Below are positions 5,547 to 62,603 of a DNA stretch of 64,000 nucleotides, piece by piece. Numbering within the stretch: position 1 is the stretch's first letter; each line of letters starts with the position of its first letter. Source of the stretch: Escherichia phage AV126; sequence record OR352956.1; one strand, written 5' to 3'. A model generated the notes under the pieces. The model saw nothing but the letters and a program-made list of their open reading frames with translations. It was not told where the DNA came from and made no database searches. A program made the translations under genes and the position numbers.

Positions 5547-6548
5547 ATGCCAGCAGTAATTTTAGATCAGGTTGTAGATTTCAGCCCTATGATCGAACTT
5601 CAGGATTCCCCTGATACACTGATTGCCAGCCTGAATCTGTTCAGTGTTGACTATCATTCAACTACCGCTATTGAAATCGGTAAAGAAAAAGCTGAAGATG
5701 CTCTGATCTCCGCTCGTGAGCGTGGTGGTGAGCGTAACTTCCTGACCATGAAAAATCCAGAACTGAAAGCGTTCCGCATTCCGTTCTTCCCTCTGGATAA
5801 AAACATCAAAGCTCAAGATATTCAATCTTTCCGTAGCTTTGCAATGGCAGGAATCAATGACTCTCTGCGCACAGACGCTGAAGTTGTTAACCGCTATATG
5901 TCCCAGATTCTGCGTGACGTAGCAAAAACCAAAGAGAAAATCTTTGCAGAAGCAGTTATGGGTCGTGCCTATAACGGCGTAGGTGGTGCAGCTAACTCTG
6001 CATACAACTGGTATACTGAATGGGGTGCTACCCAGAAATCTGTTGCTGTAGACTTTGCTTCTACCACTGTTTCTCCAGCAGCCACTATCGAACAAGAAGC
6101 TCGTGCTTACATCATCGATACTAAACAAGATGGCTCTACCGCTACCCGTATCGTAGCTCTGTGTTCTCGTGAATTTTTCGCATCTCTGGTTAACTCCCCA
6201 TTTGTTCGCCAAGCTTATCAGTATTTCCAGGGAACTCCTAACCTTCTGCGTGACCGCCTTAGCGGTAACATGGATGTTCAGGTGTTCGAATGGAACGGTG
6301 TAACTTACATTGAAGATATCCACGGTAACATCCCTGCTGGTGAAGCATATGTTCTGCCTATGGGTATCGAAGGTATGTTCCAGGCGCACTACGCTCCTGC
6401 GGATACTCCAGAACTGGCTAACACCCAGGCTCGTGAACTGTATACCTTCATGATCAGCCAGCACCGCACTATTCAGCTTCAGTCTGAATTCTCGCTGCTC
6501 GCAGTTAACACCCGTCCAGAACTGGTAGTTAAACTGACTACGGCTTAA
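5547..6548 (+). CDS. major capsid protein
   Basis: 333 aa; AGGAG SD; strongest codon optimisation in window; followed by strong intrinsic terminator; lambda-E-like size and position. Confidence 0.7.
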   Translation: MPAVILDQVVDFSPMIELQDSPDTLIASLNLFSVDYHSTTAIEIGKEKAEDALISARERGGERNFLTMKNPELKAFRIPFFPLDKNIKAQDIQSFRSFAMAGINDSLRTDAEVVNRYMSQILRDVAKTKEKIFAEAVMGRAYNGVGGAANSAYNWYTEWGATQKSVAVDFASTTVSPAATIEQEARAYIIDTKQDGSTATRIVALCSREFFASLVNSPFVRQAYQYFQGTPNLLRDRLSGNMDVQVFEWNGVTYIEDIHGNIPAGEAYVLPMGIEGMFQAHYAPADTPELANTQARELYTFMISQHRTIQLQSEFSLLAVNTRPELVVKLTTA

Positions 6549-6568
6549 TAGAACTCTGTTAAGATTAG

Positions 6569-6602
6569 AGGCTCGTCCGTGATGGGCGAGCCTTTTCTGT
6601 TT
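6569..6602 (+). terminator. intrinsic terminator after capsid gene
   Basis: AGGCTCGTCC-gtgat-GGGCGAGCCT hairpin followed by TTTTCTGTTT. Confidence 0.7.
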
Positions 6603-6632
6603 ACAATAAGAGTTTACAACGAGGAGATTGAT

Positions 6633-6977
6633 ATGTCAAACCCAGAATTGAAACGTTACTTTAGTTATCACGAAATGATTCGTGATTTCGAATCGCTTTC
6701 ACCACTGATCGATGCTGATAAAACATTAGTATCTGCGCCACCAATGTCTTTCTATCTGAAAGATGGTCGTATTGCATTAGGTGGAAACTTCATTCACTTC
6801 CTCACGCGTTTGAGAGAAGAAACAGGTATTCTTGTGCATCCTTTTGCAAGTGAAGAACACATGGGTTACTATCTTGTAAGTTACGAAGACTATGCACCTG
6901 TAAAAATCAAAGAAGAAGTTTTAAAAGTAGAAGCGGTAGACACTCCAGCTAAAAAACGTTCCCTTCGTAAAAAATAA
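6633..6977 (+). CDS. hypothetical head-tail connector region protein
   Basis: ATG at 6633 with GAGGAG SD; ORF-track start 6579 lies inside the terminator hairpin and is rejected; 114 aa. Confidence 0.5.
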   Translation: MSNPELKRYFSYHEMIRDFESLSPLIDADKTLVSAPPMSFYLKDGRIALGGNFIHFLTRLREETGILVHPFASEEHMGYYLVSYEDYAPVKIKEEVLKVEAVDTPAKKRSLRKK

Positions 6978-37353: not shown

Positions 37354-37355
37354 GA

Positions 37356-37385
37356 AAAGGAGCCATTTGGCTCCTTTCTTTTATA
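37356..37385. terminator. bidirectional terminator between convergent modules
   Basis: AAAGGAGCC-attt-GGCTCCTTT hairpin with T-rich flanks on both strands; between + strand stop (37353) and - strand ssb stop (37410). Confidence 0.7.
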
Positions 37386-37409
37386 AAAACTCTTTATAAA
37401 TCAATAAGA

Positions 37410-38297
37410 TCAGAACGGAATATCATCATCGAAGTCCATCGGAGGTTCTTCTTGATTACTTGGAGTTGGTTCTGGTTGTGGTTCAGGCTTTTTAACTTCT
37501 TTCTTCTCTTCTTTCTTAGGTTGTTCTGCGGAACCACGAATGGCAGCAGCAACTTTATCAGACAGAGCTAGAACTTTACGAGCAGAATCAATCAGATCTT
37601 CTACAGATACAGTCTTAATGGTATGGTCTTTACAAGCATTGAGGATAGCGTGACCAACAGATGCCCCAAGATCATAATCATTAATATCAACGCCACGAGA
37701 TTCAGCAATTTCAGATTTCAGCGTGACAGTTGCAGATTGAACAACCCCAGCGATATCGAAAGCATCGCCTTTAACACCATTACGAATCAGTTCCAGTGCA
37801 CCATTTACTGCGTGACCAGTTTCCAGACCTACAGTATCACGTTTTTTATAGGACTGTTTAGGAGCAGCATCGTTGGAACCTTTATTGCCAGAAGATTTGT
37901 TAGACTTCTGAACACCATCGGTAGACAATACTGTAATACGAGATTTTTTAGTATTGTAGTAAGTTTTACCGCCTTTATTATCAACGCGATCAATATCAAT
38001 ACTTACTTCTACACCTTTTTCAATAGTGATCCAGTTATCACCTTCTTTAACTTGCAGGTTTTCATAACCTTCTTTCAGTTCAATGTCACCAAGAGAAATC
38101 CAAACACCTTTCTCATCTGGTTTAGCACCTTTCTCTTTCAGAACAAGAGAAGCTCGGTGAGTTGAAACAATCGTTTTTCCTTCCCAATGAAAAGTTTTAG
38201 GTTCAGCGAATTTATCCAGTTTAACGTAGTCTACGATACCAGTTGCATAAGTTACGGTTTTGCCTTTACGATCAGTTTCAGTATTAATTACGGACAT
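37410..38297 (-). CDS. ssb: single-stranded DNA-binding protein
   Basis: 295 aa; AGAGGAG SD; Gly/Asn-rich linker and acidic tail ending MDFDDDIPF, identical to the E. coli SSB C-terminal tip. Confidence 0.85.
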   Translation of the reverse strand: MSVINTETDRKGKTVTYATGIVDYVKLDKFAEPKTFHWEGKTIVSTHRASLVLKEKGAKPDEKGVWISLGDIELKEGYENLQVKEGDNWITIEKGVEVSIDIDRVDNKGGKTYYNTKKSRITVLSTDGVQKSNKSSGNKGSNDAAPKQSYKKRDTVGLETGHAVNGALELIRNGVKGDAFDIAGVVQSATVTLKSEIAESRGVDINDYDLGASVGHAILNACKDHTIKTVSVEDLIDSARKVLALSDKVAAAIRGSAEQPKKEEKKEVKKPEPQPEPTPSNQEEPPMDFDDDIPF

Positions 38298-38313
38298 TAT
38301 TATCTCCTCTACA

Positions 38314-38706
38314 TTACATTAATTTTGCACAGAAAGAGCGGAGTCTTTCCATATCATCTTGCTCTAACAGGTATTTACCTTTACCTATTCCAACTCCAAT
38401 TTCACCATTAGGAAAATGAACTATTTGCACTGGGAAACCTCCGAGTTTAATTGTGGCAGCTTTGCCTTCTTCGTCTATAACGTTTCGGATTGTATCTTGC
38501 AGTGAAATGAATTCTTTGTTTGTAACAGTGGTTTCAATTATTTCAGATGTTTCAACACGAGCAGTTAGCTTCTTGTTTCCACCTTGAATAACCAAAATTT
38601 GAAAATAAAAAGAGTTGTCAAGACCTACAACATTTTTCTCAACTAGTGTTAAACTGGTATAATTTCCATAAACAGTTTCAACAGCTATCTTAGAACGTTC
38701 AGTCAT
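38314..38706 (-). CDS. hypothetical protein
   Basis: 130 aa, tandem with ssb. Confidence 0.5.
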   Translation of the reverse strand: MTERSKIAVETVYGNYTSLTLVEKNVVGLDNSFYFQILVIQGGNKKLTARVETSEIIETTVTNKEFISLQDTIRNVIDEEGKAATIKLGGFPVQIVHFPNGEIGVGIGKGKYLLEQDDMERLRSFCAKLM

Positions 38707-38751
38707 TGAATGCTATCCTATCATAAAATGTTTAATATTGTCAAGCTTTAA

Positions 38752-39348
38752 TTACCAAGGAATATCATCTTCTTCTTCCGATTTGGTATCTACTTGAGGC
38801 GGACGTGGAACATTAACCTCTTTAACAAAGCGAAGATATGGGAAACGCGTAGCGATTTTAATAACATGTTTGGCATCTTCTCTAACATCTTTGTGCAAGA
38901 AGCAGATCCCTGTTTCCAAAGTTGTTTCAAAATCTTTAGAGTAATAACAATCCTTTCCATCAAATGCAGCCTGGCAGATGGACAGATCAAACTCATTCAG
39001 AAAGGTTGTCATTACATTTGGGTCCATAATCATAAGGTTGCAAAGCTGACCATCACGTTCAAATTCAAAAACGTGTTTAAGACCAGTAACACCCTCGTAG
39101 TTATCCGAAGCCTCTTTGTTTCCTAGTTTACGAATATTAGTTCCCATCAAAGCAGATGCAATCAAGTCTTGTATTTGCTCTTCTGATCGATGTGCAGGAA
39201 GAGACGTGTAAAAATCCAGATCACGTCCAGCAATATCAAGAATACGCCAATCACGAACAGCACCGCCAGCCAAGACAGAATTAGGATCAGCGATCTTTAA
39301 TACGGTAAGAATTTCTTTGGCAATATTGATTTGTTTTGATTTAGTCAT
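38752..39348 (-). CDS. nucleotidyltransferase, CCA-adding/poly(A) polymerase head-domain-like, with SSB-tip-like C-terminus
   Basis: LAGGAVRDWRILDIAGRDLDFY matches the GG.VRD....D.D signature; only 198 aa; ends SEEEDDIPW. Confidence 0.5.
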   Translation of the reverse strand: MTKSKQINIAKEILTVLKIADPNSVLAGGAVRDWRILDIAGRDLDFYTSLPAHRSEEQIQDLIASALMGTNIRKLGNKEASDNYEGVTGLKHVFEFERDGQLCNLMIMDPNVMTTFLNEFDLSICQAAFDGKDCYYSKDFETTLETGICFLHKDVREDAKHVIKIATRFPYLRFVKEVNVPRPPQVDTKSEEEDDIPW

Positions 39349-39977: not shown

Positions 39978-42900
39978 TCAATGACAGGATGCCCAGGAAT
40001 TACCCACGTCATATCCGGCAGTAAGCTGAACATTAAGATTGTAAAATTCTCCAGCCTTAGTAACAGCTAAAGCAGCAAGTTCACCTGCCCGACTATAGGC
40101 TGTAAACCATCCACCTTTGGGAGATTCATGAATGTTAGCCCAAATTTGCCCTGTCTCTTTTTCCTTATTATGCTTCCATTCTTCAACTTTAGCAAGGCAT
40201 TCTTTATCAATTTTCTTTTGTTCTTCAGGATCGTCTACTTTCTTCCAACCTAATGATTCAGGTGAAAACCATTTAAATTCTACAAGGCTACGAGAAACTT
40301 CAAGCTGGGCTTCATCGTGATATGCAATCATTTGTTGCACGAAGTCTTTATTCTTCCAGTCATCTTTAAAGAAGTCAACACTTAGCCCTTCTTCTTCGAT
40401 CATGTCGTCATAAATAACCATTGCACGTTTAGCACAGATAACCCCACCACTTTGGAACAGAGAGTTAAGAATCGCGTGAGCAGAACGAGTAGGAACCTTA
40501 CGACCGTCAATACCCAAAACATACTGTTTACCAGTCTTAACCCAGAAATCGTTTAAACGTTCTTTAAGACGCGCCAGTGGGAATGCAGCTTCCCAGAAAG
40601 CATCGAACACCAGTTGCCCTGTGTATTTATCGCTACCAATTGTTTTAGCAACCTTGTCTGCTTGAGCGCCGTACGTGCAGTTACCTGTCAACGTGATAAA
40701 ACCATTCTGACGCATAACAAAAGATTCATTCTTGGTTGAGATACAGAATACATCTGTTACTCGTGAAAAAGCTTTTGTCAACCTCTGTCCTGAAATAGTT
40801 TGTCCGTTATTGATTGCCAACGTTAACATGCCATCTTTTTGAACAGAACCATACGCAATATTACCTGTCATATTGATAGCCAAAGAAACAGCGTCGCTAA
40901 TCTTACCTTTCTTTTGACGGATAACAAGACTGCCGTTTGGACGCTTATGACCATCTGCCATCCAGAATGCCTCTAAGAATGCTTCCAACACAGCTTGACC
41001 TTGATTAGCAATTAATGTAGACCAGTCCACTTCGTGCTTATTTTGACCCACTTCAACGCCACATTTAGTCAAAAATTCCCTAAACTGACTCTTATTAGGA
41101 CGTAATGAATGCATCGTTCCAGATACATACTCGTCAAATGTGAAGATATCTCCCACAGCCTCACGTGCTTCTTCTAAGAATTTTTTCTCATCTTGATCTA
41201 CCGTGACTGTAATACCCATTACTTTATTTCTGGCTTTGCTAGACCACTTATAGTAGCCATCCGAAAGAAGCCAGCCTAAGAAACGACCTTCTTCCACTGT
41301 TAGAGTAGACACCACACCAGATCGCCCTGCTGCAATTATGTTTGACTCCGAGTTTAAATCCTCTGTAGATCTACGCTCCACTTGCATATACTTAACATTG
41401 TTACCATCTGATCGCATAGTTTTTCTCTGTGCGTTAATCCACATATGATCGTTAGTAACTTCTACTTTGAACCACTTGTTACCGAGAGAGACAACTTCTG
41501 CATCGTTATAGTCCCACAGCTTAAGAATAGGGGTATATTCGTAAAGAGCGGTGTGAGTATTATAAGATAAAACTTCATCCCCTACAAAAAGATCTTTACG
41601 TTTCTTCCAACCCGTTCTTGTTAACACTTCCGTATTATCTACAGGTACACAACCGTATTTAACGCTCTTAGCAGGACCACGTTCAAACTTACGTCCAATA
41701 ATATCAGTAATATGTTTTGCCATCATAGTATGCACATCGTTTGGTTTTTCTAACAGAAGTGCATTACAGTAAGCATGATCAGGATTATCATATCTCCACG
41801 TATAATGCGACTCAATCTTCGCCTCTAATGAATCAAAGTCATAACCAATCTGGAAGTATTTAGGAACCTCTACACCAAACAGGTTACGCATCTGCCATCC
41901 AAACAAAGAGGTAACACGAGGAATATTGGCTACAGACCTATGCTTCATACGAGAGGTTGCTGCATCGCATGTAGCCGCTGGCGTAGGTATACGTCCATCT
42001 GCACGAACTGCTGCCAAGAAACCTTTGTTGTATTCTTGATCTTCTTCGTCTTCTTCCCAATCAGCACCGCCACCTAAAATAGAGTTCCTACGATGCTTAT
42101 ACGTTAAGTATTCTACAATCTGTGTAGCATAAGGAAACTTCTCACCCAAAGCTTGCAGGTTAGGACAAATTTCTTTTTCCTGACCTTTGGTAAAACATGG
42201 GTTAGTCAATACTTTAAGACCGCGACCTTTACCTTTTGCTATACGCTCTTGAATCTTCCTTTCCAAGGTTTCCGGTGTGCACTCCAGATGATCACAACGG
42301 TCCTGACAAAAATTAGAAGATAGAGTTTGCTCAACGTAAGCTCGAATACCTTTCTGAAGTTCTTCCTCACTCTTTTTAATCTTGGTGCCAGATTTAAGAG
42401 TCAAATCTTTATCTTTATATTCCGATGGTACCCAACCTAATCCTACAAGCCAGTTTTTAATATGGGTTGTATCGTTTAATGTTGCAGGGATGTGAGGATC
42501 ACATAAAGGCTCATCTGCTGCAACTGGCAGTTTCCACTCTTTCCCCAACATAACTAACCACCAATCTCCATCCCTCTCTTCCAAATGACCATCATGTTTC
42601 TTAGCAAAATTGATCATATGGTTAGTTGGCTCTAAGTTCTTTTTAATTTGCAACTTAGGTGGAATAAAAGCCTTAAGATAGCCTTTTGTTGCTGGTTTAG
42701 GTGGCAAAATAGGCTCAACGAGTAAACGAAGACGCTCCATTTCTGCATCCAAAAAAGCAAGGTTCTCTTCTGCTTGCTTCATGTTAAAAGCAAACCCACG
42801 GTGTTCCTGGCGCGTGATAATGTCTGCTACACGTTGTTCAAGTTCAAATGGACCTTCCCATTTATCATAATCCCCCCATTCTTCCATGAGGTAATTATAT

Positions 42901-43547
42901 ACACTTGTGTTGGCTTTGTTATCATAGATACAGTAATAAAGCATATCCGCAGCAAAAGTCTTAAATCGATCTTCTTCTGGAATCTCTTTACGGAAATCTA
43001 TTTTTACATCCCCACCTGCCTTTCGAGAAAGTGCTGCCAAACTATGTCCTGATTTGCCCTCAATCTTTCGATCTGGGTTTAACACTTTACTCAAAATCAA
43101 GGAGTCAATAAGTTTTACCTTATTTTTGCCCCACGTATTATATTTAACACTGTAATCTAATCCATAAAACAGTTTTGTAGCCAACCAGTCGTAGTTGATA
43201 CCGTTGTGAGCCACAGCCATTTCAACCAGATATTCAGGCTTGTCTTTAAAATAACCTTCATGATTAATAAAGTCTGGGAAATCTTTTAGTTGAAAATGCG
43301 TGTAATCTTGCGCCACATACTCTTTAAGAACATATGTGTATTTACCATCTGACTCTTCATAAGGACGCCCATCAAAGATGTATTTAGGGCCATCGTGGAA
43401 AGCTACTATTTCTCCTGTTTCATGGTTCTCTAAGACAATACAGTGCATTTGAAATGTGTCTTTGAGACGATAAGGACTAGCTAAATAATCAATAGTGTCA
43501 TTATTCAACAATCCGTTTGCTTCAATATCCCATGTAAACTTACTCAC
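39978..43547 (-). CDS. family A DNA polymerase with 3'-5' exonuclease domain, interrupted by an intein
   Basis: 1189 aa; exo motif WDIEANGL; motif A-like DFDSLEAK; motif B split (RGPAKSVKYG / CTYGAQADKVA) by 324 aa insert. Confidence 0.85.
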   Translation of the reverse strand: MSKFTWDIEANGLLNNDTIDYLASPYRLKDTFQMHCIVLENHETGEIVAFHDGPKYIFDGRPYEESDGKYTYVLKEYVAQDYTHFQLKDFPDFINHEGYFKDKPEYLVEMAVAHNGINYDWLATKLFYGLDYSVKYNTWGKNKVKLIDSLILSKVLNPDRKIEGKSGHSLAALSRKAGGDVKIDFRKEIPEEDRFKTFAADMLYYCIYDNKANTSVYNYLMEEWGDYDKWEGPFELEQRVADIITRQEHRGFAFNMKQAEENLAFLDAEMERLRLLVEPILPPKPATKGYLKAFIPPKLQIKKNLEPTNHMINFAKKHDGHLEERDGDWWLVMLGKEWKLPVAADEPLCDPHIPATLNDTTHIKNWLVGLGWVPSEYKDKDLTLKSGTKIKKSEEELQKGIRAYVEQTLSSNFCQDRCDHLECTPETLERKIQERIAKGKGRGLKVLTNPCFTKGQEKEICPNLQALGEKFPYATQIVEYLTYKHRRNSILGGGADWEEDEEDQEYNKGFLAAVRADGRIPTPAATCDAATSRMKHRSVANIPRVTSLFGWQMRNLFGVEVPKYFQIGYDFDSLEAKIESHYTWRYDNPDHAYCNALLLEKPNDVHTMMAKHITDIIGRKFERGPAKSVKYGCVPVDNTEVLTRTGWKKRKDLFVGDEVLSYNTHTALYEYTPILKLWDYNDAEVVSLGNKWFKVEVTNDHMWINAQRKTMRSDGNNVKYMQVERRSTEDLNSESNIIAAGRSGVVSTLTVEEGRFLGWLLSDGYYKWSSKARNKVMGITVTVDQDEKKFLEEAREAVGDIFTFDEYVSGTMHSLRPNKSQFREFLTKCGVEVGQNKHEVDWSTLIANQGQAVLEAFLEAFWMADGHKRPNGSLVIRQKKGKISDAVSLAINMTGNIAYGSVQKDGMLTLAINNGQTISGQRLTKAFSRVTDVFCISTKNESFVMRQNGFITLTGNCTYGAQADKVAKTIGSDKYTGQLVFDAFWEAAFPLARLKERLNDFWVKTGKQYVLGIDGRKVPTRSAHAILNSLFQSGGVICAKRAMVIYDDMIEEEGLSVDFFKDDWKNKDFVQQMIAYHDEAQLEVSRSLVEFKWFSPESLGWKKVDDPEEQKKIDKECLAKVEEWKHNKEKETGQIWANIHESPKGGWFTAYSRAGELAALAVTKAGEFYNLNVQLTAGYDVGNSWASCH
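40680..41651 (-). mobile_element. intein with double-LAGLIDADG-type homing endonuclease in polymerase motif B
   Basis: Insert begins CVPVDNTEVLTRTGW, has TNDHMWI block B-like motif and FLGWLLSDGYY / FLEAFWMADGHK, ends FITLTGN before Cys +1; in frame, 972 nt. Confidence 0.7.
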
Positions 43548-61927: not shown

Positions 61928-62152
61928 TTAAAATGGAAGTCTTTGAAGTTCATCTCCTCCGATATCAAGTAATTTAGCAACATCTCGATCAGAAAGCAAC
62001 TCTTTTCTTTGTAAAATATCTACAAGGGTTGCAAGAATATCCTTAACGTCCCGATCACTGTTCTTCAAAAGTTCTCCTGCCGTCCCTACCCTATCTCCTA
62101 CAGCAAAATATGTAACCATAAAACCTCCTAAGTTAATCTGATTGCCAACCAC
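61928..62152 (-). CDS. hypothetical protein
   Basis: 74 aa; overlaps nrdG 3' end. Confidence 0.35.
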   Translation of the reverse strand: MVGNQINLGGFMVTYFAVGDRVGTAGELLKNSDRDVKDILATLVDILQRKELLSDRDVAKLLDIGGDELQRLPF

Positions 62153-62603
62153 TTGCCGTTTTGGTCCATAATCTTTGATTATCTGACCCTCTGAAAGGTT
62201 TTGTAGTTGGATTGTTTATTTCATACTTTCCGTCTACAATAATGTCAACAAGATTTTTAATATACAAAGGCACTTCCTCAAAAGTATATCCTGTATACAC
62301 CATTATATCTTTGCTTGACCCATAAACGTCTCTAACCTTTTCTATAAGGTTTTTAACATTGTAAATATTCTGCGGATCTAATGGCTCTCCTCCTAAAATT
62401 GTTAAACCTTTTACAAACGGTCTTGACAAATCTTTTAAAACTTGCTCTACATTTTCGTGAGTGAACGGTTTCCCATAAGAATAAGACCAGGCTTTTTGGT
62501 TAAAACAGCCACGACAACCGTGGCTACAACCACTAACCCAGAGGGAGCACCTAACTCCCTCACCATTAATAAGATCTACAGGTTCATATCCTGCAAAATT
62601 CAA
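62133..62603 (-). CDS. nrdG: anaerobic ribonucleotide reductase activating protein (radical SAM)
   Basis: 156 aa; CxxxCxxC cluster (GCSHGCRGC); immediately downstream of nrdD, start overlaps its stop. Confidence 0.85.
   Translation of the reverse strand: MNFAGYEPVDLINGEGVRCSLWVSGCSHGCRGCFNQKAWSYSYGKPFTHENVEQVLKDLSRPFVKGLTILGGEPLDPQNIYNVKNLIEKVRDVYGSSKDIMVYTGYTFEEVPLYIKNLVDIIVDGKYEINNPTTKPFRGSDNQRLWTKTASGWQSD

Follow-up and report, generated by a model that had tools for sequence, protein, structure and literature searches.

Why should a small nucleotidyltransferase (NTase) of a bacteriophage end in the kind of acidic, aromatic-terminated tip by which SSB, the protein that binds single-stranded DNA (ssDNA), recruits its partners? 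The question is raised by Escherichia phage AV126, of which a stretch of 64,000 nucleotides (nt; sequence record OR352956.1, hereafter the window) was analysed, and by two genes at the end of its replication operon. In E. coli the C-terminal tip of SSB, MDFDDDIPF (SSB-Ct), docks in pockets of ExoI, RecQ, PriA, chi, RecO, RNase HI, DnaG and others, and SSB tips are a hub organising bacterial replication, repair and recombination. An earlier note on this DNA had observed that the phage SSB ends with this tip and that an NTase two genes away ends SEEEDDIPW, and had suggested that the two tails dock at the same pocket. Both ends are confirmed here. On the sequences compared, an SSB-tip mimic on a non-SSB enzyme is real and apparently undescribed, and the literature searched held no description of such a mimic on a Pol-beta NTase or of its recurrence in that family. 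What is already known is the host-like tip of the SSB-like family, published in a 2026 preprint, and the sharing of acidic tails within a replisome, which is textbook knowledge for phage T7.

Two SSB-type tips in one operon

The two genes and their parts are arranged as follows.
37410..38297, minus strand: gene (open reading frame, ORF) of the SSB-like protein, 295 amino acids (aa), phrog_4477, last gene of the operon
37923..38297, minus strand: its N-terminal OB-fold domain, residues 1-125
37539..37832, minus strand: its four-helix bundle, residues 156-253, family-specific, a putative oligomerisation domain (AlphaFold2)
37413..37538, minus strand: its disordered Pro/Lys/Glu-rich linker and acidic tail, residues 254-295, predicted local distance difference test (pLDDT) 47-56, no secondary structure
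37413..37448, minus strand: its tip EPPMDFDDDIPF, the same as the C-terminal end of E. coli SSB; the stop, TGA, occupies 37410-37412
38752..39348, minus strand: ORF of the NTase, 198 aa; stop codon at 38752-38754
38809..39348, minus strand: NTase catalytic domain, residues 1-180, head and partial neck of the class II CCA-adding/poly(A)-polymerase type
38755..38808, minus strand: unstructured NTase tail, residues 181-198, PRPPQVDTKSEEEDDIPW (AlphaFold2)
38755..38769, minus strand: SSB-tip-like NTase end DDIPW (ORF and motif scan)

The SSB-like protein ends ...EEPPMDFDDDIPF, and its last 12 residues, which stand behind a disordered linker as in the host protein, are identical to those of E. coli SSB in phmmer alignments to 1eqq_A and 7f2n_A and also to 4mz9. 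The NTase gene is separated from it by a single ORF of 130 aa, and its product ends ...KSEEEDDIPW immediately before the stop codon, with the acidic run SEEEDD preceding IPW. This end has the same architecture as that of E. coli SSB, with an acidic run, I-P-aromatic, a free C-terminus and a flexible linker, but it belongs to a protein that is not an ssDNA-binding protein and it closes with W in place of F.

A six-frame scan of the window, covering 574 stop-to-stop ORFs of at least 40 aa, revealed the tip pattern D[DE][ILVM]P[FWY] in just two ORFs, those of the SSB-like protein and the NTase, and in both at the very end. The window DNA is 98% identical to Escherichia phage ESCO5, a Phapecoctavirus, whose whole genome (149 kb) was reassembled from four fetched stretches. 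Of the 2382 ORFs of at least 30 aa in that genome, again these two alone have a C-terminal IP[FW] behind an acidic run. Beyond them the genome offers a single weak candidate, the hypothetical protein gp185, annotated at 63 aa, which ends ...GGDELQRLPF (LPF with only two acidic residues upstream); it corresponds to the stop-to-stop frame at 61928-62215 on the minus strand of the window and adjoins the anaerobic ribonucleotide reductase genes.

Among the orthologue tails read, which span 35-96% identity, 11 of 12 end [DE]DIPW and the twelfth, P0002, ends DDSFPW. The tail alignment comprised the window tail and nine orthologue tails, with L004, L006, L007, L011 and L012 as further loci; the tip is kept in P0001, in P0003-P0010, in these five loci and in the 35%-identical P0138/L005, a distant phage with the same gene order and a DDIPW-type tip. 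The terminal residue is W in every NTase tail read and F in the SSB-like tips, and some orthologues come nearer to the SSB 9-mer than the window protein does (NDFEDDIPW and NFEDFQDDIPW vs MDFDDDIPF). The linker that leads from the last beta-strand (RFPxxRFV[KR][ED]V) to the tip measures 13-23 residues and shows little sequence conservation. No secondary structure is predicted after residue 176, and pLDDT falls from 72 to 57 along the tail. The NTase thereby combines a position at the extreme C-terminus, an aliphatic-Pro-aromatic end, an acidic run, a disordered linker and a conserved tip, as expected of a motif of the SSB-tip type, and the orthologue comparison indicates that this tip is under purifying selection. 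A chance match was rejected: six-frame scanning, both of the window and of all ESCO5, shows the NTase and SSB tips to be unique, and they are conserved in orthologues.

Similar tips recur on other phage proteins. An exhaustive search of the NTase family, reduced to representatives of 50%-identity clusters, gave C-terminal [ILVMC]P[FWY] on 8 of 147 representatives. In 80 phage loci, used as background, 8 of the 1531 ORFs that reach 100 aa end in this way (Fisher p=2e-5), and the resulting odds ratio of 11 is only approximate because non-coding ORFs are counted in the background too. The family also shows a twofold enrichment of aromatic C-termini of any kind. A neighbour-joining tree of the catalytic domain alone places the tip-bearing NTases at 6-7 separate positions, and a profile search added the family ends EIPF, EIPY and DNDNF. 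Among the ORFs of the 80 loci that are 100 aa or longer, 17 close with an acidic residue and then [ILVMFC]P[FWY], and most of them fall into recognisable classes: nine are SSB-type, three are NTases, one is a T7-like primase-helicase and one is a replication-initiation/DnaD-like loader. The primase-helicase (L087, 2228-3904) ends ...ERADDRVPF and lies beside a gp2.5-like SSB (6193-6750) that ends ...DLDEDVPF. The loader (L044, 4740-5234, minus strand), whose best PHROG match is 'replication initiation protein' and which also matches the DnaD-like helicase-loader family, ends ...DDEEGLPF. The remaining three carry no functional assignment: one, in L084, matches no PHROG, and the others, in L030 and L037, belong to phrog_862 ('unknown function'). 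The latter two, of about 230 aa, end ...GDDVPW (L030, 715-1416) and ...KDKDIPW (L037, 4074-4805), so that Trp-terminated tips are seen to occur on other phage proteins too.

The SSB-like protein and the nucleotidyltransferase

The label of SSB given in the earlier note holds for part of the protein. In the AlphaFold2 model (56-sequence alignment, mean pLDDT 83) a beta-domain of residues 1-125 is followed by disorder at 133-148, by a bundle of four helices (156-172, 179-201, 208-223 and 232-253, pLDDT above 90) and, from about residue 254, by a disordered tail with pLDDT below 50 at residues 262-282. The N-terminal domain is an OB fold of the nucleic-acid-binding type, which together with the disordered tail and the tip agrees with the label; the body has no sequence match to SSB families. 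No Pfam SSB match was obtained, NCBIfam PRK09010 scored 22.8 bits against a cut-off of 260 and over tail residues 254-295 only, and SSBs in the PDB align to residues 269-295 only. A canonical bacterial-type SSB was rejected, since by sequence only the tail matches SSB profiles; the protein differs from E. coli SSB in its unrelated body and in its extra helical domain. Its full-length profile match is phrog_4477 (E=2.7e-97), annotated 'unknown function' in PHROG. Fold searches with the helical domain gave just a designed helical repeat and uncharacterised viral proteins; the bundle probably mediates oligomerisation. Nearly all of 137 homologues end D-D-[IVL]-P-F, and D154, G157, G161 and H162 of the helical domain, in a D-x-x-G-x-E-T-G-H motif, are near-invariant in the family.

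At the DNA level, the roughly 43 nt that encode the tip have a counterpart, about 88-93% identical, at the 3' end of ssb in all but five of 5426 complete E. coli genomes (5421), and window positions 37404-37448 (43-45 nt) also match plasmid ssb 3' ends at 88-93% identity. This identity is only slightly above a rough expectation for 12 identical codons, and it may point to an old acquisition of the host tail through recombination.

Several defence systems for which phage SSB-like proteins serve as triggers have been described (Retron-Eco8, Hachiman, Hna, AbpAB, DARNA and DRT10). One preprint describes a Vequintavirus protein, Bas52_0087, as SSB-like, with OB and helical domains, a disordered tail and a host-like tip; it triggers the DRT10 (UG17) defence and is proposed to compete with host ExoI/SbcB, to which it is genetically linked, and escape mutants hit positions D252 and Y351 (bioRxiv 10.64898/2026.04.29.721553). 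The window protein is of the same family, its Vequintavirus homologues matching at E about 1e-23, and in the orthologue of BASEL phage Bas53 residues 252 and 351 are D and Y and the protein ends YAFDDDIPF. As this orthologue matches the published Bas52_0087, the host-like tip of the SSB-like family is already in the literature. When the D-x-x-G-x-E-T-G-H motif is compared by eye, D154 of the window protein apparently corresponds to D252 of the Bas53 orthologue. The Vequintavirus form differs in its length of about 408-415 aa and in the two OB folds that the preprint gives the Bas52 form, against one in the window form. The preprint, as far as read, mentions no second tip-bearing protein. In the 9 kb around the Bas53 gene nothing is annotated as an NTase, all neighbours being 'hypothetical' and not searched.

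The free end of the SSB-like protein is not universal. Of 120 listed SSB-family homologues, 17 (about 14%) run on past DDDIPF into a conserved extension of 14-16 aa, [AS]P[IVL]GLQY..., exemplified by APIGLQYGRNFLHCF, and some extensions end ...YALYA. Extended forms include L002 7026-7973, L004 4001-5399, P0013, P0025, P0041, P0060, P0065, P0106 and P0112. Every Justusliebigvirus example seen carries the extension, which is also found in a few Phapecoctavirus genomes (ZCKP1, nieznany, Mt1B1_P17 and the contig L004); in these the gene of an HNH endonuclease overlaps the 3' end of the SSB gene and the extension is identical. The association of extension and endonuclease suggests co-conversion during homing, and the window sequence past the SSB stop codon looks like a degraded remnant of the extension.

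The model of the NTase (AlphaFold2, 72-sequence alignment, pLDDT 89, predicted TM-score (pTM) 0.81) is a compact alpha/beta domain whose structured part ends near residue 176. Motif A reads G28-G29-A-V-R32-D33...D43-L-D45, of which G28, G29, R32, D43 and D45 are invariant across the family alignment, and a motif-B-like DLSICQA is present. When the family profile was compared to the PDB, motif A (GGApRDW...DLD) aligned to GGAVRD...DVD (GGAVRDLLLGKTPHDVDV) of CCA-adding enzymes. Foldseek matched the model to CCA-, CC- and A-adding enzymes and to E. coli poly(A) polymerase at E about 5e-5 and a query TM-score (TMq) of about 0.55; the targets 3wfp, 3aql, 1miv, 1ou5 and 5hc9 ranged over E 5e-5 to 1e-3 with probability 1.00 and TMq 0.5-0.57. 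These enzymes are 370-450 residues long, and the match extends over no more than their head and part of the neck, the TM-score normalised to target length being about 0.27-0.31; the 198-aa protein has neither the body nor the tail domain with which they hold the tRNA minihelix. The head domain PF01743 is matched at 15.2 bits by the window NTase, below the Pfam gathering threshold of 23, and at E of at most 1 by 43 of 72 family members (best E 3.9e-5). On the model and its motifs, the protein is a half-size NTase of the Pol-beta superfamily, of the class II CCA-adding/poly(A)-polymerase type, with the catalytic GGxxRD...DxD motifs intact. With the class II tRNA NTases and poly(A) polymerase I (PF01743) it shares GGxVRD...DxD, the motif-B-like block and the head-neck fold; it differs from them in its half size, in lacking body and tail domains and in its docking-type C-terminal tail.

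Relatives of the NTase are annotated 'tRNA nucleotidyl transferase / poly(A) polymerase' in GenBank. ESCO5 has 10 tRNA genes, outside the window (L009 7194-9205) and all encoding CCA, and its annotations in L008/L009 include RNA ligase, phosphoesterase, two 'histidyl tRNA synthetase', Sir2 and DprA-like; no tRNA genes were found in the window. A need for tRNA maturation was rejected, because all ten tRNA genes of the phage encode CCA and the NTase is thus not required for that role.

Another possible relation is to Gad2 (PF26128), an NTase of about 400 aa from Bacillus SPbeta-like phages that inhibits Gabija (10.1101/2023.05.01.538930). Both are phage-encoded NTases of the Pol-beta type, the window NTase having 198 aa against about 400 aa in Gad2. 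Precomputed PF26128 matches are present on roughly half of 120 listed NTase relatives, including the 59%-identical, DDIPW-bearing P0009 and the Justusliebigvirus P0297; the match is faint on P0138 and P0243, weak on P0227 and unmarked on P0248. No precomputed match is present on the closest relatives, P0001-P0008, and a local Pfam scan found none in any of them. The window NTase has no BLAST-level similarity to Bacillus phages, and tblastn with it, with P0248 and with the 416-aa P0233 gave no match of the Bacillus SPbeta type. A direct link to Gad2 could not be made, as PF26128 was not reproduced locally and no SPbeta-type tblastn match was found.

Proposed docking at a shared partner and other possible roles of the tail

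The analysis shows the sequences, both folds, the disorder of the tail, the uniqueness and recurrence of the tip and its conservation against a drifting linker; any binding, the receptor and the substrate of the enzyme are inferred. We put it at somewhat better than even that the tail of the NTase is a short linear motif for docking, like the SSB tip, through which the enzyme would reach a partner of the phage SSB tip. The receptor would offer a hydrophobic, basic-rimmed pocket to the terminal aromatic side chain and the free carboxylate, and a basic ridge to the acidic residues before them. It would be a protein that recognises the tip of the phage SSB as well, whether one of the host's SSB-interacting proteins or a protein of the phage replisome, and the NTase would thereby be delivered to, or compete at, SSB-coated ssDNA. 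Candidate substrates may be tRNA 3' ends, DNA or RNA 3' ends at forks, or those of a Gad2-like anti-defence reaction.

The closest precedent is found in phage T7, where gp2.5 and gp4 carry similar acidic tails ending in Phe that are thought to share a site on gp5. The replisome of the window phage is T7-style, with a PolA-type polymerase and a fused primase-helicase, and the phage likewise has two replication-module proteins with acidic, aromatic-terminated tails. The two T7 tails have been treated as docking at one polymerase site, the gp2.5 C-terminus being aligned, in a modelling study, onto the gp4-tail peptide DTDF of structure 6P7E (PMC12339929). The analogy drawn in the earlier note is sustained by the genuine primase-helicase/SSB pair with VPF ends in L087. 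In the window it departs from T7 in that the second tail-bearer is an NTase and not a helicase, the primase-helicase here being without such a tail, and in that the motif is of the bacterial DDIPF type and not of the T7 type (DTDF).

The idea of shared docking draws on a conserved tip, an unstructured linker, a pair that is unique in the genome, the recurrence of such tips and their bias to recognisable protein classes, and the place of the genes in the replication operon, and several observations weigh against it. A protein that bears an SSB-type tip cannot itself bind SSB tips, so that any localisation to ssDNA would be indirect, via a shared partner. The NTase tip is absent from syntenic orthologues of Justusliebigvirus (EmilieFrey), of Klebsiella phage KP13-26 and of L013-L021; it is consequently accessory and dispensable for the core function of the enzyme. 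The difference between the W of the NTase and the F of the SSB-like protein may reflect a different receptor or a different affinity. Further, DDDIPF is buried under the extension in many of the SSBs, and the motif may be readable without a free C-terminus. Canonical SSB-tip pockets require a free C-terminal carboxylate, which the extension removes; recruitment of host proteins through the canonical pocket can therefore not be the universal role of the motif. That the phage SSB hijacks the host in this way, as the earlier note had it, is proposed for the homologue in the preprint, with ExoI/SbcB as an example of the host partners. A strict coupling of the NTase tip to the state of the SSB tip was looked for and not found, all four combinations (SSB tip free or extended, NTase tip present or absent) being represented.

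Three other readings of the tail deserve to be weighed against docking. DDIPW and the phage SSB tip could be decoys that draw host SSB-interacting nucleases and helicases, such as ExoI/SbcB, RecJ and RecQ, off the phage DNA or off host SSB; the body of the enzyme would then be irrelevant to the effect or would act on the captured partner. We consider this improbable: the SSB-like tip is identical to that of the host, competition with SbcB is proposed for Bas52_0087 in the preprint, and about half of the NTase family has precomputed matches to the anti-defence family PF26128 'Gad2' (10.1101/2023.05.01.538930), but a monomeric enzyme with one tail would be a weak competitor against multimeric and abundant SSB, and the invariance of the catalytic residues across the family argues that the enzyme activity matters. 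The tail could instead serve regulation within the molecule or the module, as a nucleic-acid mimic on the substrate groove of the NTase or on the OB or helical domain of the SSB-like protein, much as T7 gp2.5, T4 gp32 and E. coli SSB each bind their own DNA-binding surfaces with an acidic tail. That the NTase tail is acidic and flexible, that the SSB-like protein has an extra helical domain and that many family members have generic acidic and aromatic ends (DEEF, DFSDEW, DNDNF) in place of a strict IPF or IPW would suit such a role. The strict I-P-W end and the resemblance to the SSB 9-mer exceed what charge mimicry needs, though, and AlphaFold2 leaves the tail undocked on the NTase domain (pLDDT 57), so that regulation of this kind is judged unlikely.

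We give similarly little credence to the simplest account, a plain repair enzyme for tRNA 3' ends (CCA) whose tail is unrelated to replication and whose likeness to SSB is a coincidence or a remnant of recombination. It would explain why the best structural and profile matches are CCA-adding enzymes and why relatives are annotated as they are in GenBank, and it would suit a phage with 10 tRNAs and with RNA-ligase and phosphoesterase repair genes. Against it, the protein is without the tRNA-holding body and tail domains (198 aa vs about 390-440 aa; TM-score normalised to target length about 0.29), the CCA is already encoded in all ten tRNA genes, the gene lies in the replication operon and not near the tRNA or RNA-repair genes, and the conservation and recurrence of the tip exclude coincidence. 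A role in tRNA repair and a functional docking tail are mutually compatible.

A broader form of the docking reading, possible but on balance doubtful, holds that mimicry of the SSB tip is a general targeting code by which phages direct non-SSB proteins, and that a Gad2-like NTase plugs into the host SSB interactome or the phage polymerase. At SSB-coated DNA, with partners such as ExoI, RecQ and PriA, the NTase would then modify 3' ends or block a nuclease or a defence system of the host; the consistent Trp could give it an edge over the Phe-ended SSB tails; and the DnaD-like loader, the primase-helicase and the 6-7 NTase branches would be further instances.

Should docking at a shared partner be true, the T7 principle of shared acidic tails would be extended to a new class of enzyme, and a five-residue deletion would provide a handle on the function of the widespread small phage NTases. 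It would also supply a sequence rule (an acidic run and [ILV]-P-[FWY] at the C-terminus) for spotting further phage proteins active at SSB-coated DNA. Should the tail have no binding partner, what is left is a conserved motif in want of an explanation.

The operon and its neighbourhood

Besides ESCO5, 64 other phage records are 95-99% identical to the window, mostly E. coli Phapecoctavirus (Stephanstirmvirinae, myoviruses of about 150 kb). The host labels are probably unreliable on several GenBank records: filed under Campylobacter, Acinetobacter, Klebsiella or Pseudomonas phage, they share 96-97% identity with Phapecoctavirus or Vequintavirus genomes of E. coli.

The replication operon runs on the minus strand in the order primase-helicase, DNA polymerase, small ORFs, NTase, 130-aa ORF and SSB-like gene. 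The last three are co-directional and lie downstream of primase-helicase and polymerase, and the order of this three-gene module is kept across Stephanstirmvirinae. Two further features belong to its end.
38314..38706, minus strand: 130-aa protein, phrog_16560, between the NTase and the SSB-like gene
37355..37378, both strands: bidirectional hairpin terminator, GAAAGGAGCC-AAAT-GGCTCCTTTT followed by a T-run

The hairpin separates the SSB-like gene from a converging tail-protein gene and closes the operon, and the junction of stop codon and terminator seen in the window is common to at least 27 records. In Stephanstirmvirinae-like phages the phrog_16560 gene invariably lies between the NTase and SSB-like genes, as in EmilieFrey, KP13-26, phiWec186/190, L005 and L011-L021. 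Its product has an invariant block, H97...G101-E102-x-G104...K111, matches nothing in Pfam, NCBIfam, PADLOC or the PDB sequences, also when searched as a profile of 8 sequences, and could be a partner of its NTase or SSB-like neighbour.

The DNA polymerase gene (39978-43547, minus strand) encodes 1189 aa, compared to 859 aa in phage EmilieFrey. The difference in size is a 324-residue insertion at residues 633-956 (about 40680-41651), which has a Cys at its start, a LAGLIDADG-like LLSDGYY block and an end ...TLTGN followed by Cys, and which, from these sequence marks, looks like an intein carrying a homing endonuclease.

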